Shown: positions 3 through 23,871 of the stretch, piece by piece | Position numbering within the stretch: position 1 is the stretch's first letter | Layout of the letters: each line of letters starts with the position of its first letter | Origin: a virus | IMG/VR virus record: IMGVR_UViG_3300043295_000234 | Length of the DNA stretch: 24,107 nt | Strand: one strand, 5' to 3' | Translations under genes and position numbers: made by a program | The notes under the pieces: generated by a model | What the model was told of the DNA's origin: nothing | Database searches by the model: none | What the model saw: the letters and a program-made list of their open reading frames with translations, nothing else

Positions 3-131
3 CTGCGGCTGGGGGCGCGCGTGGCCCGCGAGATGACGCCCCAGGAGCGGTACGCGGCCGAGGAGAGGATCCGCGAGCTCGACGCGGTCCTGTCGGGCGG
101 GCCCGAACGTCGAGCGGGACGCCTGTACTAA
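3..131 (+). CDS. 3' end of a hypothetical protein (5'-truncated by the window)
   Basis: Frame 3 reads LRLGARVAREMTPQERYAAEERIRELDAVLSGGPERRAGRLY with TAA at 129-131, overlapping the convergent HNH stop. Confidence 0.55.
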   Translation: MRLGARVAREMTPQERYAAEERIRELDAVLSGGPERRAGRLY

Positions 132-3495: not shown

Positions 3496-3921
3496 CTACT
3501 GGCCCGCGCCCGGCGTCATGCGCGCGAGCGCGTGGGCGTTGAGGCTCGTCGCCGCGTTCGACACCACCTGGAGCTTGTAGCCCGGCGTGATGAGGATCTT
3601 GAACTGGTCCTCGTCGAACTTCTCGCTCGCGCTCGCCGCCAGGTTCCAGGTGAACAGCGGGATCGTGGTCGACGTGTCCGGGTCGTACAGCTGCACCGTC
3701 GCCAGGATCGCGGAGTTGGTGGCGTTGGTCAGGATGAGCCAGTCCACCTTCAGGTTGAAGTTGTCCGGGCAGATCGGGCCGTCGCCGGTGGCCCCGTCGA
3801 CCGTCAGGTCCGCCGGCGTCTCGCCGACCGCCGTGTGGGTCGACAGCGGGACGTAGTCGGCGTCGTGGACGTCGTCGAAGTAGCCCGACCCGAGGTAGGC
3901 CGAGGACGTGGACGCGCCCAT
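3496..3921 (-). CDS. Putative virion protein, single beta-sandwich (penton/spike-like)
   Basis: 141 aa; TGATG start; strand pattern LKVDWLILTN..ATVQLYD..ILITPGYKLQVVSN resembles small jelly-roll domains (fold inferred). Confidence 0.65.
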   Translation of the reverse strand: MGASTSSAYLGSGYFDDVHDADYVPLSTHTAVGETPADLTVDGATGDGPICPDNFNLKVDWLILTNATNSAILATVQLYDPDTSTTIPLFTWNLAASASEKFDEDQFKILITPGYKLQVVSNAATSLNAHALARMTPGAGQ

Positions 3922-4754: not shown

Positions 4755-4828
4755 CTTGTTTCTCTCCCTTTCGTGTGTGTGTGCTCGGGGCGGAGGAAGG
4801 GGTTGCTATGAGGGGGGTAGGCCGCGAC

Positions 4829-6114: not shown

Positions 6115-6342
6115 ATGGTACCGGCCGAATCAGACGGGGACGGTCAGGCCCCCCATGCGACCCCTGGACGGACCGAGCTCGTGAAGTTTCAGGTGACCTC
6201 TGAGACGAAGCTGGCATGGGTTCGAGTTACGGGTGAGGCCCGCGTGAAGAAGCGATGGAACCAGGACGATCTACTCCACCACCTACTCGAGCTCTACGCG
6301 GCCGAGGAGATGGGGAACCGTAGCGTGTTCCATCGCCGCTGA
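6115..6342 (+). CDS. Ribbon-helix-helix-like transcription regulator
   Basis: 75 aa; LVKFQVTSETKLAWVRV..NQDDLLHHLLELY strand-helix-helix pattern; divergent from the capsid gene. Confidence 0.55.
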   Translation: MVPAESDGDGQAPHATPGRTELVKFQVTSETKLAWVRVTGEARVKKRWNQDDLLHHLLELYAAEEMGNRSVFHRR

Positions 6343-8577: not shown

Positions 8578-8606
8578 CGTAAGTAGGAAGAGTATGTGTT
8601 GACGCT

Positions 8607-9059
8607 ATGCCGAAGGTCCCCTACTCTGCCCCGTACGCGGAATGGCCCGAGCGGCGTAAGAAGCTTGCGCGGGCGAGGTCACGCCGATGGGCCAACAAGA
8701 ATAGGGAGCGCGTCCGTGGGTGGGACCGAAAGAACGCGCGGCGAACCTGGCGCGCGACCACGGCGGAGGCGCTGCGAACCTACGGTACGGACCCCCCGAC
8801 GTGCGGCTGCCCCAGGTGTCCCCTCCATAAGGAGGCGGACACGCGGTTCCTGACGCTCTCTCACCCCGATGGGGGTGGAGGCGCCCACCGACGCGCGTTG
8901 ACCGGCAATTCAAAAGGAGGCGGATGGGTCGGCGCGCTCAAGAGGAGGGGCTGGCCCACGGACCCTCGCATCATCGTGGAGTGCTGGAACTGTAACGAGG
9001 GGCGCAAGGTCAATGGGGGTGTGTGCCCCCACCTTACGCCTGACAGCGCCCCTCGGTGA
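8607..9059 (+). CDS. HNH-family endonuclease-like protein (copy 2)
   Basis: Basic N-terminal helix; CGCPRCPLH, LTLSHPDGGG, RGWP, VECWNCNEGRKVNGGVCPHL; clearly alignable to 128..637. Confidence 0.75.
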   Translation: MPKVPYSAPYAEWPERRKKLARARSRRWANKNRERVRGWDRKNARRTWRATTAEALRTYGTDPPTCGCPRCPLHKEADTRFLTLSHPDGGGGAHRRALTGNSKGGGWVGALKRRGWPTDPRIIVECWNCNEGRKVNGGVCPHLTPDSAPR

Positions 9060-11166
9060 TGGCCTTGTCGAGGTCGTTGAGCGCGTCGCGCAGCGACCCG
9101 TTGACCGCCTTCGCCACCGCGGCGAAGTAGTCGCCGGGGCATGTCAGGCTTTCCGCCGTCGCGACGGCCTGGAGGTACTCGACGACCTGGGCCTCGAACA
9201 GCGGGTAGACCCGGAACTTGATGGCCCGGGAGCCGAGCGGCGTGTCGACGAGGAAGTCCGGCCGGTTCGACGTCGCGAAGACGATGTTGTTGCGCGCGAC
9301 CGTCGTCTGGTCGACGTCGGCGCGGCCGGCCTGGAGGACGTCCTTGAGGAACGAGATCGTCGTCGGCGGGATGCGGTCGACGTCCTCGAGGACAAGTACG
9401 TGCTTGACCGACACCCCCTGCGTCGACTCGCCGAACCCGCCCGGCGTACGGATGAAGTTGCGGAGCAGCTCGCGCGTCGCCGAGTCCGCGAGCGCGTCGC
9501 CCGGGACCTCGAGGTACCAGCCGGACTCCGGCCCGCCCCGGGGGTTCACGACGGCGAGCGTCGACCCGGCGGCCTCGAGCTCGGCCTGCTTCTTCCGGAA
9601 GTAGTCGCGGGCGAACGCCCGGACCACCGACGTCTTCCCGAGCCCCCCCTGCTCGCTCCACAGGACCATGAACAGCGGCGGCCGGTCCCTCTCGATCGCT
9701 GCCCGGAGGAACGCCACCGGGTTCTCGTTCTCCGGGGTGCGGCTCGACACCACGACGTCGGCGAGCGTCCTCGGCTCGAACCGCACCGCGAGCGGCACGT
9801 AGACCGCCCCCATCGGGGCGACGGTGCCGAGCGTCCGCTGCGGGGTGTAGGCCCCGGCGACCGGCGCCGTCGGCGCGGGCGCCCACTCGGCCAGGTGCTC
9901 CAGGAGCGGCGCCTGGAACGCCTCCCGGTTGAGGGCCGCCCACGGGACGTTCGTCCGGCGGCGAACGTAGTTCGCGTCGAGCGAGATCCCGAGCCGCAGG
10001 ATGAGGTCGACGCGGGCGTCATCGGAGAGGCCGTTCCAGATGCGCGAGGCCCGCGTGATGGACTCCGCCGTGATGGGCTCCGGGGGCGGCAGCGGGACCG
10101 GCTCCGACTCGATCCCCCGGACGACCTCGCGGTGCGTCCCCTCGGGGCCCGTGTGGATGCGCTCCTCCACGTACTCCCGGGTCAGCGGCGCCGGCGGCGG
10201 GGGCGGAGGAGGCGGAGGGGGAGGTGGCACGGGCCGCAGTGGCGCGGGCGGCGGTGGCTCGTTCTCGATGTGGAGCCCCGTCGGGCCGCCAAAATCGCCG
10301 GGCGGCGGGAAGTGGAAGACCTGCTCCCACCGGGACCGGGCCGCGTCGACGACGTCGGACGGGGGCCGGATCCCCCGGTCCTTCAGCAGCTTCGACCACA
10401 GCCGGTAGTTGGCCTCGAGCTCGCGGCGGCCGAACGTCCGGATGGCGTTGGGCGACGGGAACTGCGGGTTCGTGGGCTCCGGCGCCGCGGGCGGCTTGGC
10501 GAGCTCCTCGCGCTCCTCGGCCGGCGTCGGGGGCGGGGGAGGCACCTCGGGCGCGGGCGGCTCGGGCGTCCCCTGGAGCTCGGGCGGCAGCGGGGGCGCC
10601 GGGTTCTCGCCGATGTTGATCTCCCCGGGCCGGAACTCGATGCGGGGCCGGGGGCCCTCCTCGCGGCGCCCGCGCATCTCCTCCCGGATGATGTCGCGGA
10701 GCTCGTCGGGGTTGAACCCGGTGACGGGGCCGGTGACCTTGCTGCGGAGGTCCGGCGGGATGATGTCCTGGAGCTCGGGCGCGAACGACTCCACGATGGC
10801 GGCGGCGAGCTTGCCCGCGTCGCTGATCTCGATGCCCCGGAGCGCGCCGAACTGCGTCCCGAGGTACTCCTCGAGCGTCTCGCCCTTCTTGGCCCGATAC
10901 TGCATCCGGGCCGTCGCCACCCGGGCCTTCTGGAGCGTGGCGTAGTTCTGGAGGATCTGGGCCGACGTCGCCCGGAGGAACTTCCACAGCCGGTCCGCCG
11001 ACGGGAACTCCATGCGGTGCGTGCGGGTGAGCACGAAGACCTCGCGCAGGAACGCGATGATGGCCCGGCCGTCGACCTCCTTGAGGGCGCCCGAGTCCAC
11101 GACCTCGATCGCGCGGAGGGCGCGGTCGCGCGGCGACAGCCGGTCCGGGTTCGACTCAATCGCCAT
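9034..11166 (-). CDS. Fusion protein: unknown N-terminal region, Pro-rich linker, C-terminal RFC small-subunit-like clamp-loader AAA+ domain
   Basis: RFEPRTLADVV (RFC box II), GGLGKTS (Walker A), VLVLEDVD (Walker B variant), FATSN (sensor 1), LGSRA (SRC-like Arg finger), GSLRDALNDL (sensor 2). Confidence 0.85.
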   Translation of the reverse strand: MAIESNPDRLSPRDRALRAIEVVDSGALKEVDGRAIIAFLREVFVLTRTHRMEFPSADRLWKFLRATSAQILQNYATLQKARVATARMQYRAKKGETLEEYLGTQFGALRGIEISDAGKLAAAIVESFAPELQDIIPPDLRSKVTGPVTGFNPDELRDIIREEMRGRREEGPRPRIEFRPGEINIGENPAPPLPPELQGTPEPPAPEVPPPPPTPAEEREELAKPPAAPEPTNPQFPSPNAIRTFGRRELEANYRLWSKLLKDRGIRPPSDVVDAARSRWEQVFHFPPPGDFGGPTGLHIENEPPPPAPLRPVPPPPPPPPPPPPAPLTREYVEERIHTGPEGTHREVVRGIESEPVPLPPPEPITAESITRASRIWNGLSDDARVDLILRLGISLDANYVRRRTNVPWAALNREAFQAPLLEHLAEWAPAPTAPVAGAYTPQRTLGTVAPMGAVYVPLAVRFEPRTLADVVVSSRTPENENPVAFLRAAIERDRPPLFMVLWSEQGGLGKTSVVRAFARDYFRKKQAELEAAGSTLAVVNPRGGPESGWYLEVPGDALADSATRELLRNFIRTPGGFGESTQGVSVKHVLVLEDVDRIPPTTISFLKDVLQAGRADVDQTTVARNNIVFATSNRPDFLVDTPLGSRAIKFRVYPLFEAQVVEYLQAVATAESLTCPGDYFAAVAKAVNGSLRDALNDLDKAITEGRCQA

Positions 11167-12436
11167 CGGACTCCTCCTCGACCCCCTCGCGGTCCGCCTC
11201 GGTGATCGACTCGGACCGGAAGATGCGCTCGACGACGGCCGGCAGGTTCTCCTCCTTGGTGCCGGTCGCCACGACGACGTAGACGGTCGCCCGCTCCTTC
11301 CCGGGCAGCGTGCGGACCACCCGGCCGACCTCCTGGACCAGCTTGGTCACCCCGGCGCCCCCGCCCATGAGGACCGCGATGCCGACCTCCGGGACGTTAA
11401 CGCCGCGGCGCAGCACGGCGACGGAGGCGAGGACCTGGAACGTCCGGCCCCAGCTATCGAAGATGTCGACCCGGTCCCGGCGCGTCGTCTCCGCGCTGAT
11501 GATGCGGCTCGGCACCCCGCTCATCGTCAGGTAGGCGCAGGCGTCGGCCAGCGGGTCGACCCGAGTGCCGAACACGAGGATGCGCTGGTCCGGGTGCGAG
11601 CGCGCGATCGACAGGAGCTCCTCGGCCCGCGCCGGCACGTTCGCCAGCAGCGTCTCGCGGAGCGAGCTGTACTTGAAGAAGGCGAGGGCGGCCTGCCGGA
11701 TGCTCGCGTCCGGGCTCGAGATGAGCCGCTTGACCCGCAGCGGGTTCCCGGTCCCGAGGACCCGGCGCAGGTTGCGGAGCGTCGCGTCGACGCGGTCGTA
11801 CTCGCGCCGCGCCTCGGGCGTGAGCTTCACGTACCGGGCGACCGTGTGGACCGGGACGAAGACCCCGGCCTGGATCTGCTCGCGCGGGCTGCGCGACAGG
11901 AGGACGGGGAACGACGCGAGCAGCTCGCTCCTCCGCTCCTTCTCCGACGGCAGCGTCGCGGTGAAGACGACGGCGTAGCTGTGCTGGCGGGCCTCGGCGA
12001 GGACCCGCTTCCAGACGTCGCCCGTGGCGAGGTCGCCCTCGTCGAAGATGACGACCGGGAACCCCCGGATCTTCTCGGGGTTCGCGAAGAGCGACTGGTA
12101 CGTCGACACGGTGACGAACCCCGGCCGCTTCTCCTCGCCGTAGTACACGCCACCCCGGATGCCGGCGCTGGCGAGCGCGGGGATCCACACCTGGTCGATG
12201 AGCGCCTTCGTCGGGACCAGGATGAGCGTCGGCTGCCGCAGCCGGATGATGAGCGCGATGGCCGCGAGCGTCTTCCCCGACGCCGTCGGGAGCTCGATCG
12301 TCCCGTAGTGCTTCGCGAGCGCGGCCTCGACCGCCTCGTCCTGGTAGTCGCGGAGCGCGAACGGAAGCCGCCACGCGGCGAAGTCGTCGGTCGGCGGAGG
12401 GATGATGCCGAAACGGTCGAACGGGGACGCCGCCAC
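11156..12436 (-). CDS. Superfamily 2 helicase, XPB/Rad25-like
   Basis: LRDYQ (Q motif), LPTASGKT, IFDEGD, TAT, RRGVNVPE, QEVGRVVR; 426 aa. Confidence 0.9.
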   Translation of the reverse strand: MAASPFDRFGIIPPPTDDFAAWRLPFALRDYQDEAVEAALAKHYGTIELPTASGKTLAAIALIIRLRQPTLILVPTKALIDQVWIPALASAGIRGGVYYGEEKRPGFVTVSTYQSLFANPEKIRGFPVVIFDEGDLATGDVWKRVLAEARQHSYAVVFTATLPSEKERRSELLASFPVLLSRSPREQIQAGVFVPVHTVARYVKLTPEARREYDRVDATLRNLRRVLGTGNPLRVKRLISSPDASIRQAALAFFKYSSLRETLLANVPARAEELLSIARSHPDQRILVFGTRVDPLADACAYLTMSGVPSRIISAETTRRDRVDIFDSWGRTFQVLASVAVLRRGVNVPEVGIAVLMGGGAGVTKLVQEVGRVVRTLPGKERATVYVVVATGTKEENLPAVVERIFRSESITEADREGVEEESDGD

Positions 12437-12643: not shown

Positions 12644-12987
12644 CGGCGGCGCCTCCGGCTCGCGCGCAGCGCCTCGACCAGGGCCGCCTCGACCAGCTGC
12701 TTCGTCGGCTGGCGCATCGGGCCCCGGACCGGGATCATCGCGTTCAGCGCGTCGCCCATCCGGTCCTGAACCAGGTGCGCCGACGCGGCGACGACCCGCT
12801 CGGGCGTCAGCTTCCCGCGCTTCGCGAGCTCGAGCGCGGCGCCGGACAGCGAGTGGATGGAGTCCTCCCGGTGCCGGCCCCCGTGCGCCGACGCCGTGGA
12901 ATCCATGAGCTGCTGAACCTCCCGGCCGGCGACGGGGTCGATCCCCATCATCCGATTCAGCTCGGCGTGGAGCGCCCGGGACGGCAC
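12640..12987 (-). CDS. Hypothetical protein with a His/Asp metal-binding pattern (YdjM-like hydrolase candidate)
   Basis: H..MD..HR...H..HL..D spacing; 115 aa; CCTTAACC about 25-28 nt upstream of the GTG. Confidence 0.6.
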   Translation of the reverse strand: MPSRALHAELNRMMGIDPVAGREVQQLMDSTASAHGGRHREDSIHSLSGAALELAKRGKLTPERVVAASAHLVQDRMGDALNAMIPVRGPMRQPTKQLVEAALVEALRASRRRRR

Positions 12988-13012
12988 GATGGATGTAGGG
13001 TCGCCCGTTCGG

Positions 13013-13576
13013 TTAAGGGTTCGGTTCCGGGCTCGCGAGCCCGGCCGAGGGCGCGGGCCGCATGCACAGGCCGTGGTGGAGCGGGCAGATGCCCCTCGGG
13101 GGCCGGTAGATGGGGGCGTCGTCGATCTCGCCCTTGTCGCGGAGCATGACGAGCATGTGGAACGTCAGCCAGCAGAAGTACTCCCACCCCTGCGGCGTGT
13201 CGAGCAGCGCGGCCTTCTGGGGGTCGGCCGACCGGATGAGCTCGCGGCACATCCGGGGCTGCATCAGGTAGGTGTGGATCGAGGTCCACTGGTTCCGGAT
13301 GACGGCCCGCGCGATGCGCTTGGAGAATCGGTTGTCGAGGTAGCGCCGCCGGACCTCGGACGACAGGTCGTAGCCCGTCGTGATCGCGTACTCGAACTCC
13401 GCCATGCTGAACGACTGCGCGAGGACCCCGAACATCGACTGGATGAGCTCGTCGTTCCCGGGCTTCGTGAACCGGAGCGCGCGCTTGAACCAGCTCTCCT
13501 TCCAGAACTTCGCGGCCTCGGGCGAGGCGTGCGGCGGCACCCGGGTCTTGAGGTTGTCCGCGTCGGTGTCGGCCAC
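13013..13576 (-). CDS. Hypothetical protein (about 187 aa)
   Basis: Aromatic-rich helical globular sequence; start placed at GTG 13576 after the 13587 stop (the track gives 13612). Confidence 0.75.
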   Translation of the reverse strand: MADTDADNLKTRVPPHASPEAAKFWKESWFKRALRFTKPGNDELIQSMFGVLAQSFSMAEFEYAITTGYDLSSEVRRRYLDNRFSKRIARAVIRNQWTSIHTYLMQPRMCRELIRSADPQKAALLDTPQGWEYFCWLTFHMLVMLRDKGEIDDAPIYRPPRGICPLHHGLCMRPAPSAGLASPEPNP

Positions 13577-15116: not shown

Positions 15117-16045
15117 CGGTTGCTTCCCCCTCCCGGGCTCAGGGCGAGTCGGGGAGGATTGGTAACGGCGTCGGAAACGGGAACCCGGGCCTCATCGCGC
15201 CGGACCTGGCGCTCCATGAGCTCGTCCAGGAGGATGACGTCCTCCTCGTTCAGGTGGGCGCCGCTCAGGAGCGCCGCCAGCACGAGCTTGTTGGCGTACT
15301 CCCGAATCTCGCGCCGCCGCTTCACGGGGTCGAGCTCGTCCTCCAGGGCGTCGATCTTGGCGAGGAGGAAACCGATCTCGCGGCTCATCCGGGTGTAGGA
15401 GTCCTGGTTCCTCCACCAGAAGTCGATAGCCTCCTCGACCATCTTGCCGGGACCCTCCGGGAACCGGGCGCGCAGCCCGCTCTCGACGTAGAACTTGGTG
15501 ACGACGACGCCGGCCTGCTCGACCCAGGCCTGCTGTTGGAGGGCCTTCTGGGTCGCCGCCTCGACGTAGGTGTCGGCGAGCTGGTTGCGGGCCGCCTGCT
15601 CGGCGACGTCGGCGGGGGACGTGCCCTCGGGGGCACCGCGCGCCTCCTCGACCACGGCCTTGACGGCCGAGGCGATGGCGAGGGGGAGGGAGCGCATGTC
15701 GGCGCGCAGGGCCTCGATCTCGGGGGACACGGACGCTGGGGGCGCGGCCGACGGTGCCGACGGCGCGCCGGGCACCGCGGATCCCCCCGATGGCGGATTC
15801 GCAGGAGGGGTGCCGTCGCTGCCCGTGGCGGCCGTCGCTCCTGAATCGGGCGTCGTCGATCCCACGGCGGGCGCCGGGCTGGTCCAGCCGGGGATGCCGG
15901 CCTGGGCGAGGAGCTTCTTGACGACCCGCTCGTCGCAATCGGCAGCCTTTGCGTAGGCGGAGATCGACAGGTCCACCCCCGCGTCAAAATGGGCCCGGAG
16001 CGCCTTCTTGACCCGGTCGGTGTGCTCCTGGCTCCAGCGCGCCAC
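15113..16045 (-). CDS. Protein with an N-terminal HTH-like domain, Pro/Ser linker and coiled coil (about 310 aa)
   Basis: LSISAYAKAADCDERVVKKLL fits an HTH; start GTG 16045 or TTG 16057. Confidence 0.7.
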   Translation of the reverse strand: MARWSQEHTDRVKKALRAHFDAGVDLSISAYAKAADCDERVVKKLLAQAGIPGWTSPAPAVGSTTPDSGATAATGSDGTPPANPPSGGSAVPGAPSAPSAAPPASVSPEIEALRADMRSLPLAIASAVKAVVEEARGAPEGTSPADVAEQAARNQLADTYVEAATQKALQQQAWVEQAGVVVTKFYVESGLRARFPEGPGKMVEEAIDFWWRNQDSYTRMSREIGFLLAKIDALEDELDPVKRRREIREYANKLVLAALLSGAHLNEEDVILLDELMERQVRRDEARVPVSDAVTNPPRLALSPGGGSNR

Positions 16046-16053
16046 TGCCGGCC

Positions 16054-16094
16054 GCAAGTGCTGGTCCGCTACTTAGCAAGTGCGCCCGCAAGTG
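16054..16094. repeat. Three direct repeats of GCAAGTG
   Basis: Copies at 16054-16060, 16076-16082 and 16088-16094, directly upstream of the HTH gene. Confidence 0.7.
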
Positions 16095-16266
16095 TCCGAA
16101 CACCAGCTGGTGCTGCTGCGGGCGTACTCCGTCACGTCAGACCGCCGTGGGGGGGAGGATGCCGTCGTGGGGGAACCCTCGACGGACGCTCGGCGCTCGC
16201 CACGTCCCCCCGGCGGGGCGCGACCGGCGCCGAGCGCCGGCGGCCCCCACAGGGGGGCCCGCCCGG

Positions 16267-16629
16267 TTACGGGCCGTCCTTGCGCCAGAGCGCGGAGGCG
16301 AAGTTCGCAGCCTTCTCGGCACCGCCGAACCGGAGGCGCTGGCCGATGTGGACCACCCGAAAGGGCCCAACGTTGTTCTGCCACCACGCGGTCGAGGGGT
16401 CGTCCTTGACGAGCAGGACCACGGGTCCGGGGTGGTCGCGCGCCTTGCGGACCCACGGGCCCGGGTCCGAGTACGGCGGGTTGATGAACACGGGTCGGTC
16501 TGTCGGCCACGCGCCCAGACCGTCCCGCTCGCGCAGGCCCTCGGGGTTGACGGGACACGCATCGAAGTACGGCCGCCCGTCGAACAGGACCTCCAAGAGC
16601 CATCGGGGGGTTGCCCAATCGTCCGTCAT
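16267..16629 (-). CDS. Phage-type DNA N6-adenine methyltransferase (Dam family), 120 aa
   Basis: DDWATPRWL, FDAC, VFINPPYS, STAWW, QRLRF motifs; ATG 16629 fits the motif spacing. Confidence 0.85.
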   Translation of the reverse strand: MTDDWATPRWLLEVLFDGRPYFDACPVNPEGLRERDGLGAWPTDRPVFINPPYSDPGPWVRKARDHPGPVVLLVKDDPSTAWWQNNVGPFRVVHIGQRLRFGGAEKAANFASALWRKDGP

Positions 16630-16648
16630 CGGCAGGGGGGCGACCGAG

Positions 16649-16870
16649 TTACAGGCACGGGGCCGGGGGCACGAGGCCCCACGACACCACGAGCCCCTGC
16701 GCGTTGGGTGCCCGGTGATACCACCCGCAGCCAGGACACCGGAGGCGCTGCCCGTCCGCTCGGCGGAAGTGAACGACGGTCGGGTCCTCGGCAAAGAGCA
16801 TCCGGACAAGGGCGGGGTCGCTGTTCGTCTCGGGGCTCGGCGGCGTGGGTCGGTCCATGCTCGCGCTCAT
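16649..16870 (-). CDS. Small hypothetical protein with CPGC (73 aa)
   Basis: ATG 20 nt after a motif TAA; its stop TAA lies within the next motif. Confidence 0.6.
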   Translation of the reverse strand: MSASMDRPTPPSPETNSDPALVRMLFAEDPTVVHFRRADGQRLRCPGCGWYHRAPNAQGLVVSWGLVPPAPCL

Positions 16871-16890
16871 CGCCCCGGGGGCGGCAGGGG

Positions 16891-17376
16891 TTACGCGGGC
16901 TCCCCGTCCCCGATGGCCCACGGGGCCGCCTCGTACCCCGGGAGCCGCGCGATCAGCAGCATGCGGAGCCCTTCGCAGAAGCGGTACGCCTCAGTCACCT
17001 CCCAATCCGCCGACTCGCAGGATTGGTACTCGAAGCACCGAAGCAGCTTGAGCGCCCCGACGGCCGACACCCGCCGGGACGTCTCGCGGTAGCGGTACTC
17101 GGGGGTCGCCTGTAGCTCGCCGTACCGGGCGCTGACGCTGCGGTGGTTCTCGGCCCAGAGCATCGCGCCCACGGCGTCCGCGTTCGTGTAGTCCAGCTCG
17201 CGGCGGTTGGCGCGGACCTCGGCGATCCAGCCCTCGTACCCGGCGGAGCCGGGATACGGCGGGCTCGGCCGAGCCTGCCACGTCACGCGGTCGGCACCAA
17301 GGGCCGGCGAGGAGTACCGAATCCCCGCCGTCAGCAGATAGTCGATGTGGGCCTGCGACACGACAAACGCGCTCAT
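16891..17376 (-). CDS. Conserved mobile-element hypothetical protein (161 aa)
   Basis: MSAFVVSQAHIDYL..LWAENHRSVSARY..FEYQSCE..W..LPGYEAAPW pattern recalled from phage/plasmid proteins; TGATG start. Confidence 0.75.
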   Translation of the reverse strand: MSAFVVSQAHIDYLLTAGIRYSSPALGADRVTWQARPSPPYPGSAGYEGWIAEVRANRRELDYTNADAVGAMLWAENHRSVSARYGELQATPEYRYRETSRRVSAVGALKLLRCFEYQSCESADWEVTEAYRFCEGLRMLLIARLPGYEAAPWAIGDGEPA

Positions 17377-18437
17377 CAGCCCGAGGCGGGACGGGTTACG
17401 CCCTCGGGGGAGAACGTCTCCAAGGGGACCTCTCCGACCCACTCCCCACGCTCGCCCGAGCGGCCCGCCCGTTGGAGGGCGACCCGGACCTTGAACTGCC
17501 ACGAGGGTTTCCCGACGACCAGTTCCGGGTGCCGCTCGGCGAACCACGCGTACGCCTCGGTCACGGTGACGCGGCCCCCGTGGTCGGCGATACAGGCCTT
17601 CGCCTCGCTCGCCCACCCGATAGCGTCCAGCCGCAGGGTGTGCCGGGGAGGGGGCGCGCGAGCGCGCGTGGCGAGGCCCCGGAGGGCCGCCGGGCGCGCC
17701 GCGCACGCGAGGAGGCCGTTCTCCTTGACGCAGTCCGCGCAGGCCGTGTTACACCGCAGGAACGTGCGCCAGTCCCAACCGGCCTTCTGGAGCGGCGTCT
17801 CGCGGCCGTACGCGAAGTGGCCCTCCACCAGCTTCGTCTCCATCACCCGAGAGCGCAGGGGCGTCTCCATGACGCGCCCGGCCTGGACGGCGATGCGGTC
17901 GAAGAGCGGGCCGAACAGGGGCGCGTTCTCGCCGGTGGACTTGGCGCGGAAGATGACCTTGGGGATGCGGGCCAACTCGACCAGCCGGTCCTCGGGGGGG
18001 ACCACCGCCCCGGTCGGGAGGATGTCGGTCGAGATTTGGATGTTGACGCACCGGGGATCGAGCGCCACCCGCTCGTAGAACGACAGGGGGAGCAGGCCGC
18101 GGCTGATGAGGAAGTACGAGCGGTTGGGGAAGTCGGGGCGGAGCCACCGAGCCCCGCAGCAGTCCCAGACGCCCTCGCCGGCCTTGAAGGCGGCGTAGTC
18201 GTCCGGGAGGATTTCGCGGTACGTCCCCAGCCGGATGAGGCCCCGGCGGGCGGTCCCCTCGTGCCGGTGGTTCGGGGTGGACCTGCGCCGCCGGGACGTG
18301 GCGAGGCGAAGTTTCAGGAGCGGCTCGGCGTAGCACTCGGGACAGAGCCCCTTGCCGAACAGGACGCAGGGGCGCAGCTGTTCGACCTCCGGGCAAGGGA
18401 CCAGCCCTGCCCCCGACATCTTGAGGTTGGACGACAC
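17376..18437 (-). CDS. Gp88-like (radical-SAM-related Fe-S) protein
   Basis: C-x8-C-x7-CPECYA, RLGTYREI, YFLISRG, NIQISTD, C-terminal CNTACADC; 353 aa. Confidence 0.6.
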   Translation of the reverse strand: MSSNLKMSGAGLVPCPEVEQLRPCVLFGKGLCPECYAEPLLKLRLATSRRRRSTPNHRHEGTARRGLIRLGTYREILPDDYAAFKAGEGVWDCCGARWLRPDFPNRSYFLISRGLLPLSFYERVALDPRCVNIQISTDILPTGAVVPPEDRLVELARIPKVIFRAKSTGENAPLFGPLFDRIAVQAGRVMETPLRSRVMETKLVEGHFAYGRETPLQKAGWDWRTFLRCNTACADCVKENGLLACAARPAALRGLATRARAPPPRHTLRLDAIGWASEAKACIADHGGRVTVTEAYAWFAERHPELVVGKPSWQFKVRVALQRAGRSGERGEWVGEVPLETFSPEGVTRPASG

Positions 18438-18455
18438 GGCCCGGGGGCCGAGGGC

Positions 18456-18656
18456 TTACGGGAGCCGGTCGTCGAGTCCGACCCCTCCCCCGGCCGCGAG
18501 CGCGCGCCCCACCGTGGGGAGCGGGTCGCGCCCCGCCGCGATCTCGGCCGCCGTGAACTTGTCGAGGAACTTCCGGCGGCGCCGCCCGTCGGGGAGCGCG
18601 CAGAACCGCTGAACCACCCTGTCGAGGCGGGCCTGTTCGGCCTCCCACGGGTTCAT
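18456..18656 (-). CDS. Hypothetical protein (66 aa)
   Basis: TGATG start; TAA stop within a motif. Confidence 0.6.
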   Translation of the reverse strand: MNPWEAEQARLDRVVQRFCALPDGRRRRKFLDKFTAAEIAAGRDPLPTVGRALAAGGGVGLDDRLP

Positions 18657-18952
18657 CAGTCCATCAACCCCGGGAACGGGTCAGGCTCGGTCGGCGCGCG
18701 GGCGCAGACGGGGCACGTCCCGAGCGGGTTCGCGCAGGCGACCTCGCCGAGCCGGTCGTCCTCGGGCGTGACGACATCCACGCCGTCCGGATCGACCGCC
18801 TCCATGTCGGCCTGTATCTGTTCGAGCCCGGCGATCCGCGCCTTGTAGTCGGAGGGGGCCACCACGTCCACCGTGTAGGTGACGCGGTAGTGGCAGTTGT
18901 CGGCGCGGGGCGTGTCGGCGTTCGGGAGCGGGGTTGCCGCCTCTGGTGCCAT
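18656..18952 (-). CDS. Acidic hypothetical protein (98 aa) with YRVTYTVDVVAPS and CxxC motifs
   Basis: ATG 18952 is 19 nt after a motif TAA; TGATG at both ends. Confidence 0.7.
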   Translation of the reverse strand: MAPEAATPLPNADTPRADNCHYRVTYTVDVVAPSDYKARIAGLEQIQADMEAVDPDGVDVVTPEDDRLGEVACANPLGTCPVCARAPTEPDPFPGLMD

Positions 18953-19206
18953 CAGGCCGGGGTCGGGGCGGTTACGGGGGCCGTCCCGGTCGGCGGGGCC
19001 GCGTCCTCGGTGACGACCAGTTGGAGCGAGGCCCACGCGGAGTCCGAGCCCGCCTCGGAGTGAAACCCCCGGGTGTCGTCGATGATCCCGTGGACCTTCT
19101 CCAAGACGGCCTTGCGGGCGGGCGGAGCGATGCCCGCCTGCGCCATCAGGTCGGAGAGGGAGCGCCACCGGCCGTACCAGACGCGCTTGTGGGGTGCGGT
19201 CGCCAT
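18952..19206 (-). CDS. Hypothetical protein (84 aa)
   Basis: MATAPHKRVWYGRWRSLSDLM...; TGATG at both ends. Confidence 0.65.
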   Translation of the reverse strand: MATAPHKRVWYGRWRSLSDLMAQAGIAPPARKAVLEKVHGIIDDTRGFHSEAGSDSAWASLQLVVTEDAAPPTGTAPVTAPTPA

Positions 19207-19706
19207 CAGTCCCCCCGGGGAAGCCCGGCGTCCTCCCGGTTGTCGGCGTCGCGGTCGGACTGGTCCGGATCGGGCGCGTCGTCGGCCTCGGGCTCCCACT
19301 CGAAGTCCGCCGCGGCGTTCGTCTCCCCGATGTCGTCTTGGTCCACCTCGAAGAACCCGGAGTCGTAGTCCTCCTTCGAGTCGGCGGGAACGCCGAGGTT
19401 TCCGTCCTCGGCCAGCTGGTCGATCACGTCGGCGGCCGCCTGTTCGTCGGGGGCCCGGACCACGCGGGAGCAACGGTTCCCCGTCTCCCACAGGACGCGG
19501 TAGTTTTTCCACTCGCTCTTGGGCGGGACGGGGACCAGCTGCTTGCCGACCCGCCGAACGGTGACGCCCGGCGACGGCTCGGCGACGACGAGCCCCGCCT
19601 TGACGAGGTTCCCCATCCCGAAGGCGCCCACCATCCACTCGGGGGCGTGCGCGACCACTTCCGGCGCTGTCTCACTCTTGGGCGGGTTGTCCGCCTTCTC
19701 GGTCAT
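19206..19706 (-). CDS. Acidic protein with a DpnD/PcfM-like domain (166 aa)
   Basis: YRVLWETGNRCSRVVRAPDEQAAADVIDQL..EDYDSGFFEV; motif 19 nt upstream. Confidence 0.65.
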   Translation of the reverse strand: MTEKADNPPKSETAPEVVAHAPEWMVGAFGMGNLVKAGLVVAEPSPGVTVRRVGKQLVPVPPKSEWKNYRVLWETGNRCSRVVRAPDEQAAADVIDQLAEDGNLGVPADSKEDYDSGFFEVDQDDIGETNAAADFEWEPEADDAPDPDQSDRDADNREDAGLPRGD

Positions 19707-19725
19707 CGACCGAGGGACGGCCGGG

Positions 19726-19977
19726 TTACGCGAACTCGGAGAGGCACGTCTCCCGGTAGCGCGGGGGACGCGGGCCGTGGGTCGCGGGGACCTCGCCCGG
19801 GGTGTCGGTGATCCGGCGCTGGTCGTGTCGGAGCCGATGCTCCCCGAGGCACGCTCCGCAGACCACGAACGCCGGGCTGTCGGGAAGGTGCGGAGCGCAG
19901 TCGAGGCACGGGCCCCGGCGGACCGATTGGAACCGGGTCAGGCGGAACCCGCAGAAGTGGCAGGGTGTCGGCTTCAT
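19726..19977 (-). CDS. Cys/His-rich Zn-finger protein (83 aa)
   Basis: CHFC, CLDC, CGAC..H; motif 19 nt upstream. Confidence 0.7.
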   Translation of the reverse strand: MKPTPCHFCGFRLTRFQSVRRGPCLDCAPHLPDSPAFVVCGACLGEHRLRHDQRRITDTPGEVPATHGPRPPRYRETCLSEFA

Positions 19978-20079
19978 CGTCCTGGCTGTCGAGAAGTTAC
20001 GGGCGGGAAGGGGTTGGGTTTGAGGGGGGCCGCTCTCCGAGCTATGGGACTTGCCCCTCGCGGCGGCCCCCGGTCATCG

Positions 20080-20454
20080 TCAGCCGGGGGTCGGGGACGT
20101 TACGGCGGGCACGTCCTCGACCTCCTCGTCCGTCTCGGAGACGCGGTGGATCGAGCAGGGGCCGGACACGCACCCCTCCTCCAGCGCCTCGCGGATCATC
20201 TCGCGCGCCTCCTCGACCGAGCCGAACTCAAGCGAGTCGCCCTCCTCCGTCTCGAACCACTCGCGGGTCGGCCTGTCGGGACTGCGGACCACGAACCACT
20301 TGTAGGGAGCCTTCTCGACCAGCAGCGGGTCGGGCTCGTCCCCCACGTATTCCACGTATTGCTCGTAGGCTTGCTCGGCGATGTTGCGCGCCTCTTCCTC
20401 GGTCGCGGCCTCGACGGTCGTGTCGAAGCCGTGCCGGACCCTCCACAGCGTCAT
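20080..20454 (-). CDS. Acidic hypothetical protein with an internal repeat (124 aa)
   Basis: TVEAATEEEARNIAEQ and LEFGSVEEAREMIRE; motif 19 nt upstream. Confidence 0.75.
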   Translation of the reverse strand: MTLWRVRHGFDTTVEAATEEEARNIAEQAYEQYVEYVGDEPDPLLVEKAPYKWFVVRSPDRPTREWFETEEGDSLEFGSVEEAREMIREALEEGCVSGPCSIHRVSETDEEVEDVPAVTSPTPG

Positions 20455-20918
20455 CACGCGGGGACCGGCGGGGTTACGGGCGCGCTCGGCGCGGGGCTCT
20501 GTCGGGCCCGGATCTCCGCGCGCCGGGCCCGTTCCGCACGGGCCTCGCGGGAGCGGGGATGGAGGAGCAGCCGCGCGTCCGTGGTCCAGCCGCAGAAGTA
20601 CTCCACGCAGTCGGAGCCCGCGATGGGCTCCTCGATCAGGTTGCCGTCCTTGTCGAAGTCGTCCCCCCACGGGAAGGCATCGAGCGCGTCCTGGACGAGG
20701 TTGCGGAGCATCTGCTCGCTCGGGCCGGGGCGCACCCGCCTGTCGCCACGGACGGCGGAGGCGAAGAGCTGGCCGGCGTAGTCGGGGCCCCGCAGCTGCC
20801 CCCTGCGGCAGGCGTAGTCGATGATCCTCGCGGCGCGGGCGAACGCTTGGTGCCGGGTAAGGTCGGGGTTCAACTCCACCAGTACGTCGGTCAGGGCCGA
20901 CATCGCGGAGCGCCCCAT
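20454..20918 (-). CDS. Hypothetical protein (about 154 aa)
   Basis: TGATG at both ends; globular composition. Confidence 0.7.
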   Translation of the reverse strand: MGRSAMSALTDVLVELNPDLTRHQAFARAARIIDYACRRGQLRGPDYAGQLFASAVRGDRRVRPGPSEQMLRNLVQDALDAFPWGDDFDKDGNLIEEPIAGSDCVEYFCGWTTDARLLLHPRSREARAERARRAEIRARQSPAPSAPVTPPVPA

Positions 20919-21067
20919 CAGTCCTCCCCGGTCGCGTCGGCCTCGGCGTCGGCCTCGCGGGCCTCCCGCTCGCGATCCTCGCGGGCGGTGATCTCCGTGT
21001 CGATGTCGTCTCGGGGGTTCCACGGTGCTTCCGGGCCCTGCGGGCCCCGGTCCTCTACGGGCGTCAT
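20918..21067 (-). CDS. Small acidic protein (49 aa, absent from the track)
   Basis: MTPVEDRGPQGPEAPWNPRDDIDTEITAREDREREAREADAEADATGED; motif 19 nt upstream; TGATG end. Confidence 0.65.
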   Translation of the reverse strand: MTPVEDRGPQGPEAPWNPRDDIDTEITAREDREREAREADAEADATGED

Positions 21068-21092
21068 CCCCCCGAGGGGAGCGGGGTTACGT

Positions 21093-21260
21093 TCAGAAGT
21101 CGGAGAGCGAGGGCCCGAGCCGGCGCACCGTCGGGGTGAGCGCCTCGGTCTTGGCCTGGATGAAGCGGTACTGGTCGAGCGCGCGGTCGATGGCGCAGGC
21201 GTCGTTCTCGGCCTCCACCTGGAACGAGGCGGCCGGGATCTTGACCTCGAAAATCGGCAT
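21093..21260 (-). CDS. Small hypothetical protein (55 aa, absent from the track)
   Basis: MPIFEVKIPAASFQVEAENDACAIDRALDQYRFIQAKTEALTPTVRRLGPSLSDF; TGATG start. Confidence 0.7.
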   Translation of the reverse strand: MPIFEVKIPAASFQVEAENDACAIDRALDQYRFIQAKTEALTPTVRRLGPSLSDF

Positions 21261-21499
21261 CAGCGCCCCATCGGCCGAGGGTGGTCGCGCTCCTCGGTCA
21301 GCTGCTCGACCTCGGCCTGGGCGTCCTGGGCGGCGTGCTCGAAGCCGACCAGGTAGGCCTCGTGGCAGAGCTTCTCCACGTCGTCGAAGGTGAGCGTGAT
21401 GAACGACCCGCCGTCGGGCTCGGGTCGGATCGCCTGCGCGTCGAGGACCGTTCGGACCGCTCGCTCCTGCCGCTCCTTGTCGGGGGTGATGGCTACCAT
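21260..21499 (-). CDS. Hypothetical protein (79 aa)
   Basis: MVAITPDKERQERAVRTVL...; motif 19 nt upstream; TGATG at both ends. Confidence 0.7.
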   Translation of the reverse strand: MVAITPDKERQERAVRTVLDAQAIRPEPDGGSFITLTFDDVEKLCHEAYLVGFEHAAQDAQAEVEQLTEERDHPRPMGR

Positions 21500-21696
21500 C
21501 ACTGGTACTCCGACGGGATTACGCCGGGCGGGAGGATCCGGCGCACGCAGTTCAGGTGGTACTTCACCTTGTCCACCGACACGCAGTCGCCTCGGAGGCC
21601 GCGCCGGCAGTACTGGCACTTGGGCCACACCTCCTCGTAGAGGGACGGGTTGTCGAACGACGGGCCGTAGATGTGGAAGAACGAGATCTCGACCAT
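21499..21696 (-). CDS. Zn-finger protein (65 aa)
   Basis: CQYC..YHLNC treble-clef-like pattern; motif 18 nt upstream. Confidence 0.7.
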   Translation of the reverse strand: MVEISFFHIYGPSFDNPSLYEEVWPKCQYCRRGLRGDCVSVDKVKYHLNCVRRILPPGVIPSEYQ

Positions 21697-21753
21697 GCCC
21701 GGGGGGCCCCCCGGTTACGGAGGGCCCGGGCGGAAGGGGTTGGGTCGGCGCGC

Positions 21754-23205
21754 TCAGTACTCGTCGCCGTGGCTCGTGGGGGTGTGGGCCCCGAGGATCC
21801 CGTCGATGGCGTCGAGGACGGACCCCCGGTTCTTGTTGCGGGCCTCCGTCTCGCGCATCCGGGCCGCGAGCAGCGGGTCGTCGCGGAGGTTGACCGTCTT
21901 GTCCGAGGAGGAGTAGGCCTTGCCGTTCTTCCCCTTCGACCAGCCGGTGATCGCCTTGACCACGTCCGCGACGGACCCCGAGAGGAGCTCGGGCACCGGG
22001 TCGAGCGGCTCCGCGTCGGGGAGCATCGGCCAGCCGGAGCCCCGGACCACCTTGAGGACGGCCTTGCGGTCCTTCCCCGAGGCGGGGATGGCGATGGCCT
22101 GGGTGACGTGCCCCTTCTTGGGGTCCACGACCGGGCGGAACTCCACGCCGAACGAGTACGGCAGCTTGCCGAAGCCGAGCTCGTCGCGGTCGATCTCCAG
22201 CGTGACGCGGACCACGTCCTCGTCGCCGCCGTTCAGGTCCATGCGGACCGACGTGACGCCGTCGCCGGCCTCCTTGACGAGGCCCAGGACGAGCTCGTAG
22301 GGCCGCTTGTCGATGCCGACGGCCGGGTTGACGGACCGATCGTACCGCTCGGCGCGGCGCTCGTCGCGCTCGGCCTTGACGGTCGGGTTCGCATCGATCA
22401 CCGAGCGGCGGTCCTGGACGGCGCCCGTGCTCAGGTTCCAGATGTGGCCGTTCGCGTCCTGGACGGTGACGGTCTTGCCCTTCGTCTTCATCGTCCCGTA
22501 GGCCTGCCGCTCGGGCGGCTGGGTACACTTGGGGCACGATGGGAACTTCGACGCTGCCGCCGTCTCGCGCAGCTGGGCGGCCTCCTGGGCCGCCTCGGCC
22601 TGCTGCCGGATCTCCGTGCGGAAGTACGGGTCGACGGGGCCGACGAGGTAGTCCTCCGAGCGCCCCTCGATGATGTCGCGCTGGCCCTCGACGGGGAGCG
22701 ACGCGATCAGGACGGCGTGGCCGACGTCCATCTCCCCGTCGGCGAGGAACTTCTGGGCCTCGGGGGAGAGGTTGAGCAGGCGGAGCCGGTCGCGGACCCA
22801 CGACTCGCTCTTCGACAGGCGGGCGGCGATCTCCTTGGGCTTCGCGCCGGTGGCCTCCGAGTACGCGTGGATCCCCCGGGCCTCCTCCATCGGGGTCAGG
22901 TCGGTGCGGAGCAGGTTCTCCAGGAGCCGGACCTCGGCGCGCTCGGGCTCCGTCAGGGACATCACGCGGGCCGGAACGGTGAGCAGCTTCGCGGCCTTCG
23001 CGGCGGCGACCCGCCGGAACCCGGCGACGAGCTCGTAGGTGTCCTTCTCCTTGCCGGCGACGACGATCACCGGCTCGAGGACCCCGTGCTCGGCGATGTT
23101 GGCGACCAGCTCCTTGAACGCGGGCGAGCCCTCGTCGAGCTCGCGGACGTTCCCCTCGGCGACAATTCGGCTCAGGGCGACCTCGGCGTACTCCTTCGCG
23201 GGCAT
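21754..23205 (-). CDS. parB: ParB/Spo0J-family protein with an extended C-terminus (483 aa)
   Basis: LVANIAEHGVLEPVIV..YELVAGFRRVAAAK (GxRR), LLENLLRTDLTPMEEA, HTH EIAARLSKSESWVRDRLRLLNL. Confidence 0.9.
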   Translation of the reverse strand: MPAKEYAEVALSRIVAEGNVRELDEGSPAFKELVANIAEHGVLEPVIVVAGKEKDTYELVAGFRRVAAAKAAKLLTVPARVMSLTEPERAEVRLLENLLRTDLTPMEEARGIHAYSEATGAKPKEIAARLSKSESWVRDRLRLLNLSPEAQKFLADGEMDVGHAVLIASLPVEGQRDIIEGRSEDYLVGPVDPYFRTEIRQQAEAAQEAAQLRETAAASKFPSCPKCTQPPERQAYGTMKTKGKTVTVQDANGHIWNLSTGAVQDRRSVIDANPTVKAERDERRAERYDRSVNPAVGIDKRPYELVLGLVKEAGDGVTSVRMDLNGGDEDVVRVTLEIDRDELGFGKLPYSFGVEFRPVVDPKKGHVTQAIAIPASGKDRKAVLKVVRGSGWPMLPDAEPLDPVPELLSGSVADVVKAITGWSKGKNGKAYSSSDKTVNLRDDPLLAARMRETEARNKNRGSVLDAIDGILGAHTPTSHGDEY

Positions 23206-23224
23206 CACCCGTAAGGGGGCCGAG

Positions 23225-23404
23225 TTACGGGCCGAACGCGGGGGAGAGGCGCTCCTGCTCGACCCCGTGGAGGTACACCTTGTGCTGGGTCGCGCGCTCC
23301 AGGGCGAGGCGCTGCCGAATGTTACAAGATCGGCAGACGGGTTGGCCGAGGAACTCCTCGACGCCCGGCTGCCGGCAGTAGACGCACGGGAGGGGGTCGC
23401 TCAC
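23225..23404 (-). CDS. Zn-finger protein (59 aa)
   Basis: CVYC..CRSC; GTGA-coupled start. Confidence 0.65.
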   Translation of the reverse strand: MSDPLPCVYCRQPGVEEFLGQPVCRSCNIRQRLALERATQHKVYLHGVEQERLSPAFGP

Positions 23405-23514
23405 GGGAACGGCCACGCGGGGAAGTGGGCGTAGACGACGTCGCCGTCCTCGTTCACCGAAACCTCGAACGTCATGCCGAGGACCTCCTCGACCATCACC
23501 ACGTCCTCGCTCAC
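23401..23514 (-). CDS. Very small acidic protein (37 aa)
   Basis: MSEDVVMVEEVLGMTFEVSVNEDGDVVYAHFPAWPFP; GTGA overlaps at both ends. Confidence 0.55.
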   Translation of the reverse strand: MSEDVVMVEEVLGMTFEVSVNEDGDVVYAHFPAWPFP

Positions 23515-23696
23515 TTCCGCCTCCGCCGCCGCGCGACCTTGCGGAGCAGCTTCTCCTTCGCGTGGAGCTCGGCGAGCCGGATCTCCTGCGTCTCCTCCGG
23601 GGTGCCGATGCGCCCGCACTTCCGGCAGGCGCGTCGGCCGCCGAGCTCGTCGACGGGGTTCGACCAGTCGGGCTCGTGGTCCGTCGGGTGCGTCAT
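23511..23696 (-). CDS. Small protein with CRKC and a basic tail (61 aa)
   Basis: Motif 19 nt upstream of the ATG. Confidence 0.65.
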   Translation of the reverse strand: MTHPTDHEPDWSNPVDELGGRRACRKCGRIGTPEETQEIRLAELHAKEKLLRKVARRRRRK

Positions 23697-23715
23697 CGCC
23701 CCGGGGCCGGCGGAG

Positions 23716-23871
23716 TTACGGCAGCGCCGGGACCGCGTGGCCCTTGACGAACGTCGGGAAGTACCCGGGCGCCGTCATGAAGGACTGGTCGCGGTTCGCC
23801 TCGGCGTGGATCGCGTAGCTCGCGGGCCAGCCGCACGTCGGGCAGATGGCGTCGATCGGGATGGCGGTCAT
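23716..23871 (-). CDS. Small protein with CPTC (51 aa)
   Basis: ATG 23871 overlaps the upstream TGA; TAA stop within a motif. Confidence 0.6.
   Translation of the reverse strand: MTAIPIDAICPTCGWPASYAIHAEANRDQSFMTAPGYFPTFVKGHAVPALP

Follow-up and report, generated by a model that had tools for sequence, protein, structure and literature searches.

The window, the whole 24,107-nucleotide stretch of DNA analysed here, comes from a virus-like element of ~56 kb that belongs to UBA184-type Thermoplasmata and in which a short word lies ~21 nt before most early genes, some 6 nt nearer to them than a host box. Judging from sequence, this word, at about −23 to −18, is probably the core of a TATA-less early/middle promoter that yields mostly leaderless mRNAs and is read by a viral sequence-specific factor. 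In some relatives of the element the word switches to CCAAA and the geometry is unchanged.

The element belongs to an apparently undescribed family (~55–56 kb) of uncultured, virus-like elements in peat and acid-soil archaea, linked to an abundant archaeal family of these habitats. Its viral nature rests on size, circularity, gene content and mosaic variants. It encodes RecT; capsid, portal and integrase were looked for and none was identified in the element, and scans of IMG/VR gave chance matches or nothing. A search of an incomplete literature library found no description of the family or of the motif. The host is archaeal, with 3–4 TFB paralogues per host and several TBPs in host assembly G001.

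Motif copies in the window

All 15 motif positions of the initial annotation are present on the minus strand, and the 13 regular distances from the T of TAA to the start codon were reproduced (22 nt in ten copies, 21 nt in two, 23 nt in one), as was the division of the TAA into stop codons (7), intergenic positions (3) and positions inside an open reading frame (5). The formula given there, CGTAAC-N19-ATG, needs adjustment: its distances are right, but the 19 nt follow CGTAA, which leaves 18 after CGTAAC, and three copies depart from the word that most share (TGTAAC at 16651, CGTAAT at 21521 and CGTAAG at 18458). The strict pattern CGTAAC-N18-20-DTG has 9 matches, versus 0.38 expected and a maximum of 2 in 100 shuffles. 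In the 16.2–24.1 kb region CRTAA occurs 14 times in sense and once in antisense orientation, and 12 copies have ATG or GTG at 20–23 nt, compared with 0.2 in shuffles. The reported confinement to 16.2–23.7 kb is true inside the window, but the element holds more copies elsewhere, before the first early gene, RecT and one gene of another module.

Read in the direction of transcription (all features that follow are on the minus strand), the copy with T at 23718 (23696..23720) has the upstream stop as its TAA and leads to an ATG at 23696, with a predicted RNA start at 23697. The next (T 23227; 23205..23229) precedes the ATG of a ParB-family gene (ParB_N and HTH_ParB; 21754..23205), which would be motif-driven, and alone has an inverted arm that is perfect over 7 bp. 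Intergenic copies lie at T 21717 (21696..21719; start at 21 nt), T 21089 (21067..21091), behind which the module is swapped among variants, and T 19999 (19977..20001); a pyrimidine tract precedes those at 21717 and 19999. Within upstream reading frames stand the CGTAAT copy (T 21521; 21499..21523), with a stop-start overlap at 22 nt, and the copies at T 20476 (20454..20478) and T 18974 (18952..18976). At T 19728 (19706..19730) one variant swap ends 12 nt past the T, and at T 17398 (17376..17400) one ends at +21. The CGTAAG copy (T 18458; 18437..18460) has a GTG at 21 nt, and that at T 16893 (16870..16895) a start at 23 nt. TGTAAC (T 16651; 16629..16653) precedes a Dam-family adenine methyltransferase gene (16267..16629), the last that would be motif-driven, whose conserved N-terminus anchors the start. 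Two irregular copies keep TG at +20/+21: one (T 20102; 20077..20104) is followed by ACG at +22 and by an ATG at +25 that opens only a short reading frame, and the terminal copy (T 16269; 16248..16271) lies at the Dam stop with no conserved reading frame after it.

Two promoters in the window serve for comparison (12987..13017 and 16045..16077): in the former a canonical host-type CTTAA box (13017-13013) lies 28 nt before the GTG that heads an operon of a 103-aa, a helicase and a clamp-loader-like gene, and in the latter GCTAA lies 30 nt before the GTG of a 310-aa gene, the first gene outside the motif-driven cluster. The former is the clean leaderless comparator; the TATA sequences at 7343 and 6088 that had been offered as such lie 55 and 40 nt from their starts on the minus strand.

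The same slot in related elements

The slot is filled by C[GA]TAA in five distant relatives (proteins ~50% identical), and CRTAA enrichment and strand bias are seen in six elements. Two other elements have CCAAA there: L326/L329, with 7 matches versus 0.3 in shuffles, and G125, two contigs assumed to form one element, with 6 versus 0.2. The same motif cluster, running from the first early gene to Dam, is found in all six CRTAA and both CCAAA elements, and a terminal copy also ends it in the four fully read CRTAA relatives and in one CCAAA relative. The start lies at 20–23 nt for 64 of 91 non-redundant boxes, start-codon assignments being anchored by the Dam N-termini.

Distance and word compared with host promoters

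In host genes and host tRNAs, and likewise at the remaining promoters of the element, the TATA word stands at 27–31 nt. Host boxes peak at 27–28 nt and drop sharply below 26, those of tRNAs lying mostly at 28–31. Both spacings occur in the viral genomes, CRTAA at 20–23 nt (59 vs 3) and YTTAA/TTCAA at 26–30 nt (25 vs 5). The pattern CRTAA-N17-19-ATG shows no excess in 186 genomes of the host order, and the apparent host matches at 21 nt all come from a binned piece of this element. In 60 of 77 contigs the host orthologue of the first early gene is preceded by a box at 27 nt; in three viruses the distance is 21–23 nt. The initial annotation had put the motif about 5 nt closer than a TATA box; closer it is, and against host genes the shift is ~6 nt.

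The viral copies also differ from host boxes in word and context. They avoid CTTAA, the commonest host word, and none of 71 has a TATA word at the canonical upstream slot, where AT content is 0.14–0.39 against a regional 0.29–0.33. Host boxes are preceded by an A-rich BRE, which viral boxes lack: A at T−9 to T−7 amounts to 6–15% in viral copies versus 24–41% in the 27–28-nt host set, a small one that takes in one viral gene. Canonical spacing (~23 ± 2 nt from the TATA box's 3' edge) is not kept by viral copies at 20–23 nt when their start sites are taken from start codons and the YR step. CGTAA, CATAA and TGTAA occur as host TATA variants, the first two being real at 27–29 nt, and CCAAA has no peak in host upstream regions. 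Several viral spacers keep TAG at +13 to +15, as does the host promoter of the same gene, which, together with CGTAA and CATAA being host words, fits descent from a TBP site. The use of CGTAA and CATAA as minor host TATA words at 27–29 nt and the occurrence of CCAAA in relatives were not visible to the initial annotation.

An initiator-like step at a fixed distance

The Y-R initiator of canonical archaeal promoters is found in the viral copies, where a YR step stands at +20/+21 in 75% of 64 short copies. Among 22 copies that have their start codon elsewhere (leadered or without a reading frame), 18 also show it, against a background of 19%; this set was hand-picked and its copies are not independent. 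The step thus appears to be kept when motif and start codon are further apart, as it would be at a transcription start. Divergent gaps of 48–92 bp hold the first-gene copy, and in them the motif is often the sole candidate promoter. Conservation is limited to 5–6 bp; the spacers are GC-rich and share no conserved fold (mean z from −0.55 to +0.30), and the window has no Rfam matches.

We propose that a virus-specific class of promoter, with the motif at its core, serves the recombination, partitioning, methylation and accessory genes, which would be expressed early or in the middle of the cycle. RNA would start at the purine at about +21, which would place the word at about −23 to −18 and leave most mRNAs leaderless or with a 1-nt G leader; a few would have leaders of 10–13 nt beginning with a GAGG-type ribosome site. 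More speculatively, an element-encoded sequence-specific protein may read the word and recruit the host RNA polymerase, acting instead of TBP/TFB or while repositioning them. Whether a viral protein can replace or reposition TBP/TFB thereby becomes a directly testable archaeal question, as about a dozen genes per genome apparently start half a helical turn closer than from a host box, with no TATA upstream.

Alternative explanations

The word might instead be read by host factors, with TBP using CRTAA as a weak TATA box or a TFB paralogue using a downstream element and the start lying ~6 nt closer. CRTAA and TGTAA being host TATA variants would suit this, as would the several TFBs of the hosts and TBPs of G001, a box-to-TAG distance like that of the host promoter of the orthologous gene, the AT motif at −26 to −19 in class II repeats of halovirus HF2 (PMC8707807), and the position of the first copy in relative G124, which on the other strand falls where a canonical TATA box would serve the divergent gene. 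This explanation is nevertheless rather unlikely: it leaves CCAAA in the same slot, a word with no peak in host upstream regions, the avoidance of CTTAA, the missing A-rich BRE and the lack of any excess of the pattern in host-order genomes to be accounted for, and spacers read in the host register would measure 16–18 nt, versus 23 ± 2 in 94% of mapped M. jannaschii promoters (PMC2699501). An antisense TATA reading applies to the one G124 copy only and was rejected. The signal might also act in RNA, a long early transcript being cut ~21 nt past the word into leaderless mRNAs, in the manner of a polyadenylation signal with CPSF-type cleavage, or a viral RNA-binding protein placing ribosomes, for which the fixed start distance, the scarcity of Shine-Dalgarno sites and the 88% pyrimidine content of G124 spacers, like archaeal termination tracts, can be cited; a change of word would suit an RNA-binding factor equally. 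However, the first-gene copy lies in divergent gaps of 48–67 bp with no upstream TATA to bring it into RNA, and the word often has a terminator-like tract immediately ahead of it. That the YR step keeps its place when the start codon shifts to +25 to +44 argues against a ribosome ruler; at 5 of the 15 window copies the start overlaps or abuts an upstream stop, which would allow coupling in the absence of the motif. With the spacers lacking a conserved fold, a hairpin or RNase-site reading was dropped, and we judge action at the RNA level quite unlikely.

Recombination at sites delimiting gene cassettes, of an integron-, dif- or shufflon-like kind, is largely refuted as the main function and highly improbable. 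The motif does border most genes, the last included, RecT is encoded, and strain variants swap modules, with 4 of ~14 swap ends in the motif-to-start span (5% of the region); this bias is explained by selection for expression-competent swaps. Crossovers fall at different bases (−6, +5, +12, +21), most of them inside genes, dyad symmetry is limited to one copy (12 of the 13 window copies reach an inverted-arm match of 3–4 out of 7 at best), and no integrase, resolvase or tyrosine recombinase was found among precomputed Pfam matches of called genes. Such sites would explain neither the first-gene copies nor the fixed YR step. Equally remote is a stoperator-like repressor operator, or mere stop-codon context: the TAA is a stop in 7 of the 15 copies and every copy runs in the direction of transcription, but 8 are not stops, CCAAA contains none, an operator presupposes a promoter, of which there is no sign upstream, and the strict start distance would go unexplained. 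A reading as an ECF-sigma promoter of bacterial type, in which the −35 word is followed by N16 and a −10 that overlaps the ATG, was rejected because the host is archaeal and only the start codon is conserved at −10. The identity of CGUAAC with a stretch of 16S helix 44 is deemed coincidental, since the CCAAA relatives do not have it; the G001 assembly has no 16S.

The early-promoter or viral-factor branch of the initial proposal is thus supported by a geometry kept in eight related elements with a different word in two, by the initiator-like YR step, the tight divergent gaps and the absence of such spacing from host genes, while its translation or RNA-processing branch is weakened.

A candidate factor

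The best candidate reader of the word is a winged-helix-like protein of ~300–360 aa, encoded divergently from the first motif-driven gene and preceded by a normal TATA promoter. Its C-terminal part models as winged-helix-type (the best match, at Z 6.0, has an rmsd of 2.8 across 77 residues); nearly all of the top 50 structural matches are winged-helix, at middling Z scores of 4.5–6.0 (under 8), and there is no Pfam or PDB sequence match. A search for TBP/TFB in the complete G124:C24 contig gave no match up to E 1, and host-built profiles gave E of at least 0.2 and an hhalign probability under 4%. A reading of the divergent gene as a remote TFB was abandoned, there being no profile match and the model being winged-helix-like.

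The CCAAA viruses group together in the trees of the winged-helix-like protein (98/99) and of the 126-aa first early protein (94/91), but not in those of ParB or a 187-aa protein; this co-segregation of word and factor clade rests on two CCAAA lineages, with the factor gene of L094 left out. In L327 the candidate factor has a homologue with no motif cluster close by. The 126-aa protein, host-derived and possibly a partner of the winged-helix-like protein, gives a confident model (pLDDT 90) with no fold match (best Z 4.7) and no Pfam or Atlas match, a result from which neither a function nor a new fold follows. A tentative and somewhat doubtful extension is that the winged-helix factor, perhaps packaged in the particle, lets the host RNA polymerase make a TBP-bypassing, sigma-like start, with no need of a TATA box, from a swappable 5–6-bp word at −23 to −18, word and recognition helix changing together between virus lineages. 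The two word/factor pairs lend themselves to a cross-over experiment and, if this is true, could provide orthogonal inducible promoters for archaea.

Comparison with known systems

In the middle promoters of phage T4, the MotA box and MotA/AsiA allow a viral word, read by a DNA-binding protein of the virus, to replace a host core element and redirect the host polymerase; the analogy is functional only, T4 being a bacterial sigma-70 system, and no homology is claimed. Mycobacteriophage start-associated sequences are repeated words before small accessory genes. They are a weaker parallel than the halovirus repeats, and are ~13 bp long, start-abutting and ribosome-site-like, whereas the word described here lies 20–23 nt off, in register with the YR step and not with the start codon.

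Archaeal viruses are described as having no RNA polymerase of their own and as using host TBP/TFB at clear TATA/BRE promoters (PMC5569661). Fixed distance, YR initiator and mostly leaderless mRNAs are shared with the canonical archaeal BRE/TATA/Inr promoter (PMC2699501, PMC5569661), from which the viral copies differ in a word ~6 nt closer (20–23 vs 27–29 nt), in having no BRE and, in some relatives, in CCAAA. The GTC element of SIRV1/SIRV2 (Kessler et al. 2004, cited in PMC5569661) is likewise a short viral word just past the TATA position but, as far as that citation describes it, stands beside a clear TATA box, of which none is detectable in 71 copies here. Closest in function, as the initial annotation had noted, are the class I and II intergenic repeats of HF2 and Haloferacalesvirus, which are repeated, conserved and oriented promoter elements with separate early-middle and late classes, and for which virus-encoded sequence-specific factors have been proposed (PMC8707807). 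Those repeats, however, are 29–58 bp long, AT-rich, carry real TATA boxes and are active in uninfected Haloferax (PMC8707807), whereas here only 5–6 bp and the YR step are conserved, no TATA is seen upstream, CRTAA and CCAAA are interchangeable, and it is the early class that is close-spaced.

A fixed-distance motif in the early region

All positions listed in the initial annotation for CGTAAC-N19-ATG were found on the minus strand at the distances it gave, the T of TAA lying 22 nt from the start codon in ten copies, 21 nt in two and 23 nt in one. The strict pattern has 9 matches in the window against 0.38 expected. Between 16.2 and 24.1 kb there are 14 coding-strand copies of CRTAA (CGTAA or CATAA) and a single one on the opposite strand. 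The distance constraint held against shuffles: for 12 copies in this region the start codon lies 20-23 nt away, where shuffled sequence gives 0.2. Five relatives with roughly 40-55% protein identity (L087, L089, L094, G124:C24 and L285) have C[GA]TAA in the corresponding cluster, which runs from the first early gene towards the Dam-family gene, and 64 of 91 non-redundant boxes show the 20-23 nt spacing to a start. The starts behind the word are real, since the conserved N-terminal motif of the Dam-family gene (16267..16629) begins 20-22 nt after it in five relatives. Non-homologous modules swapped between strain variants each come with a copy of the motif at an unchanged distance. RecT, too, has a copy in front of it, as do single genes at other places. 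The motif is a real, family-wide, selected element.

At the end of the cluster (window 16267-16050), a motif copy is followed, in all elements read through there, by 200-600 bp with no conserved ORF, which may encode a small RNA or a transcript linked to an origin. Some variants have a gene with an N-terminus resembling LAGLIDADG by eye (L070:1345-1800; L108:6239, minus strand), with its own CCTAA copy 21 nt ahead of the start. Just upstream of RecT, L087:9820-9910 contains 3-4 tandem repeats of ~21 nt, with the motif word on the opposite strand.

In L326/L329, a 56-kb relative with the same gene order, CRTAA is absent from the early region and CCAAA occurs there 14 times in sense and once in antisense, 7 copies being at the equivalent distance against 0.3 expected. 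G125:C18 has 6 such copies against 0.2 expected, and in G125:C6 and G126:C12 the first early gene likewise has CCAAA before it. The AA of CCAAA has the same place relative to the start as in CRTAA, and CCAAA gives no peak in host upstream regions. A change of word with the geometry kept would be expected of a sequence-specific factor changing with its site.

The element, its host and the host TATA boxes

The window belongs to an element of ~56 kb that is present on many peat metagenome contigs; RecT and the 126-aa gene heading the cluster lie ~3 kb past the window's right end. G001, a Thermoplasmata genome with a TBP closest to those of UBA184-type genomes, has pieces of the element in its bin. 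In this host family the 126-aa gene belongs to the chromosomal core (59 of 60 genomes; 0 of 341 others), which ties the element to it; both this tally and that of 186 host-order genomes, among which CRTAA-N17-19-ATG is not enriched, take in three unpublished genomes (G162-G164), and every claim draws on other genomes as well. The host copy, read from translations, lies between the thermosome and lysyl-tRNA synthetase genes. The first early gene (L068:6312-6728, plus strand) is a captured copy of this ~130-aa core gene (host copies in L239-L318, G001:C110 and G124:C11); the captured copy is present in 8 of 8 elements, and the core gene was not found in other sampled Thermoplasmata. Its product has a confident structure model with no fold or family match. 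In L068 an ACG aligns to the start codon (6312-6323), so that, judging from sequence, translation must start at an upstream GTG (+25 or +28) or at the ACG itself.

Host boxes peak 27-28 nt before starts and drop sharply below 26; the sole two "host" boxes at 21 nt are on the binned contig of the element itself. For host tRNA genes the box is mostly at 28-31 nt. Viral genomes have CRTAA at 20-23 nt (59 vs 3) and YTTAA/TTCAA at 26-30 nt (25 vs 5). In 60 of 77 contigs the box of the host orthologue of the first early gene is at 27 nt; in three viral copies the distance to the same start codon is 21-23 nt. Taking the host 27 nt as equivalent to the usual spacer of 23 nt would put the viral spacer at 16-18 nt; in M. 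jannaschii, 94% of mapped promoters are within 23 +/- 2 (PMC2699501). None of 71 copies has a TATA word at the upstream canonical slot, and the motif departs from TATA promoters in three tests (TATA position, TATA presence and BRE). It may nevertheless descend from one, as CGTAA and CATAA are also minor host TATA words, at 27-29 nt, and some viral spacers retain TAG at +13..+15, as in the host promoter. The host bin G001 has several TBP and TFB paralogues (C107, C14, C25, C56, C19, C77); G124 has one TBP and three TFBs.

Transcription, translation or recombination

The motif could act in DNA as a start signal, in RNA as a translation ruler or cleavage signal, or as a place of recombination. 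A pyrimidine-purine step, mostly TG, is found at +20/+21 in 18 of 22 copies (background 19%) of either word with the start codon further away or absent, a hand-picked set of non-independent copies; in 12 of these a GAGG-type word directly follows the step. The first-gene copy lies within divergent gaps of 48-92 bp, of which it is the sole AT island in G124 and L087. C/T-rich tracts often lie just upstream of the motif and, in several host contigs, after the stop codon, and spacers have no conserved fold. Taken together, the step, the divergent gaps, the upstream tracts and the lack of a conserved spacer fold appear to speak for a start signal acting in DNA rather than for a translation ruler or a cleavage signal, with a start predicted at +21. 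As for recombination, modules are exchanged among variants, and 4 of ~14 swap ends fall within the motif-to-start span, 5% of the region. These are at four different bases, the remaining ends being inside genes or at other gene junctions; no motif copy except 23227 has dyad symmetry, and no integrase was seen among the Pfam hits of called genes. RecT-type exchange with selection for expressed junctions would make the bias a side effect. We consider it probable that the motif is a promoter.

Stops in the element (window ~21735-21743, ~20010-20018 and ~4795-4805; L228) and the host thermosome gene (L245, L247, L259) are repeatedly followed by a CAACCCCTT tract, which probably serves as a terminator in this high-GC lineage; G124 has the tract and the motif fused.

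The motif resembles in function the intergenic repeats that serve halovirus HF2 as promoters, where class II likewise has a close AT motif, at -26..-19 (PMC8707807). Its slot is that of the GTC element of SIRV (PMC5569661). A TATA box is retained in both of these systems; none was seen at the canonical slot for the motif.

A candidate factor

Searches of these elements turned up neither a TBP nor a TFB. A 295-360-aa gene, with ~20 homologues at 50% clustering, is divergent from the first motif-driven gene in 7 of 7 relatives with the region read, and has a canonical-looking box in most. The C-terminal part of its product models well, and winged-helix domains make up almost all of the top 50 structural matches, the match being weak (best Z 6.0, rmsd 2.8, 77 residues). 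In its third helix, CRTAA elements have xNxL where CCAAA elements have FDH. The tree of this gene places the two CCAAA elements together (98/99), as does that of the 126-aa gene (94/91); the ParB and 187-aa trees split them. That the tree tracks word type, over two lineages, may be taken as a lead, not proof, and the grouping leaves both the gene with the winged-helix-like product and its 126-aa neighbour as candidates. We lean towards a TATA-less promoter class read by a viral factor; that the system amounts to TBP bypass by a winged-helix protein seems doubtful. The appropriation of the T4 MotA type is a functional analogy.

Other features of the element

The G124 relative is a 54-kb contig with terminal repeats. 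We call the element virus-like because no capsid gene was identified on it. Two conserved ~280-aa genes with no family match (window 5193-6050 and 3921-4754, minus strand) are capsid candidates; they have no detectable homologues in G124, which suggests that its structural module differs. An XPB/Rad25-like helicase (11156-12436, minus strand) lies beside a 710-aa protein with a clamp-loader-like ATPase lid (9034-11166, minus strand); the two have a canonical promoter, and their order and presence differ between relatives. A Cys/His-rich ORF of lower GC (128-637, minus strand) resembles an HNH nuclease by eye and is a candidate for one. Between the ATPase and the gene that comes next, 8600-9030 is a lower-GC, apparently non-coding stretch, possibly an origin or control region.
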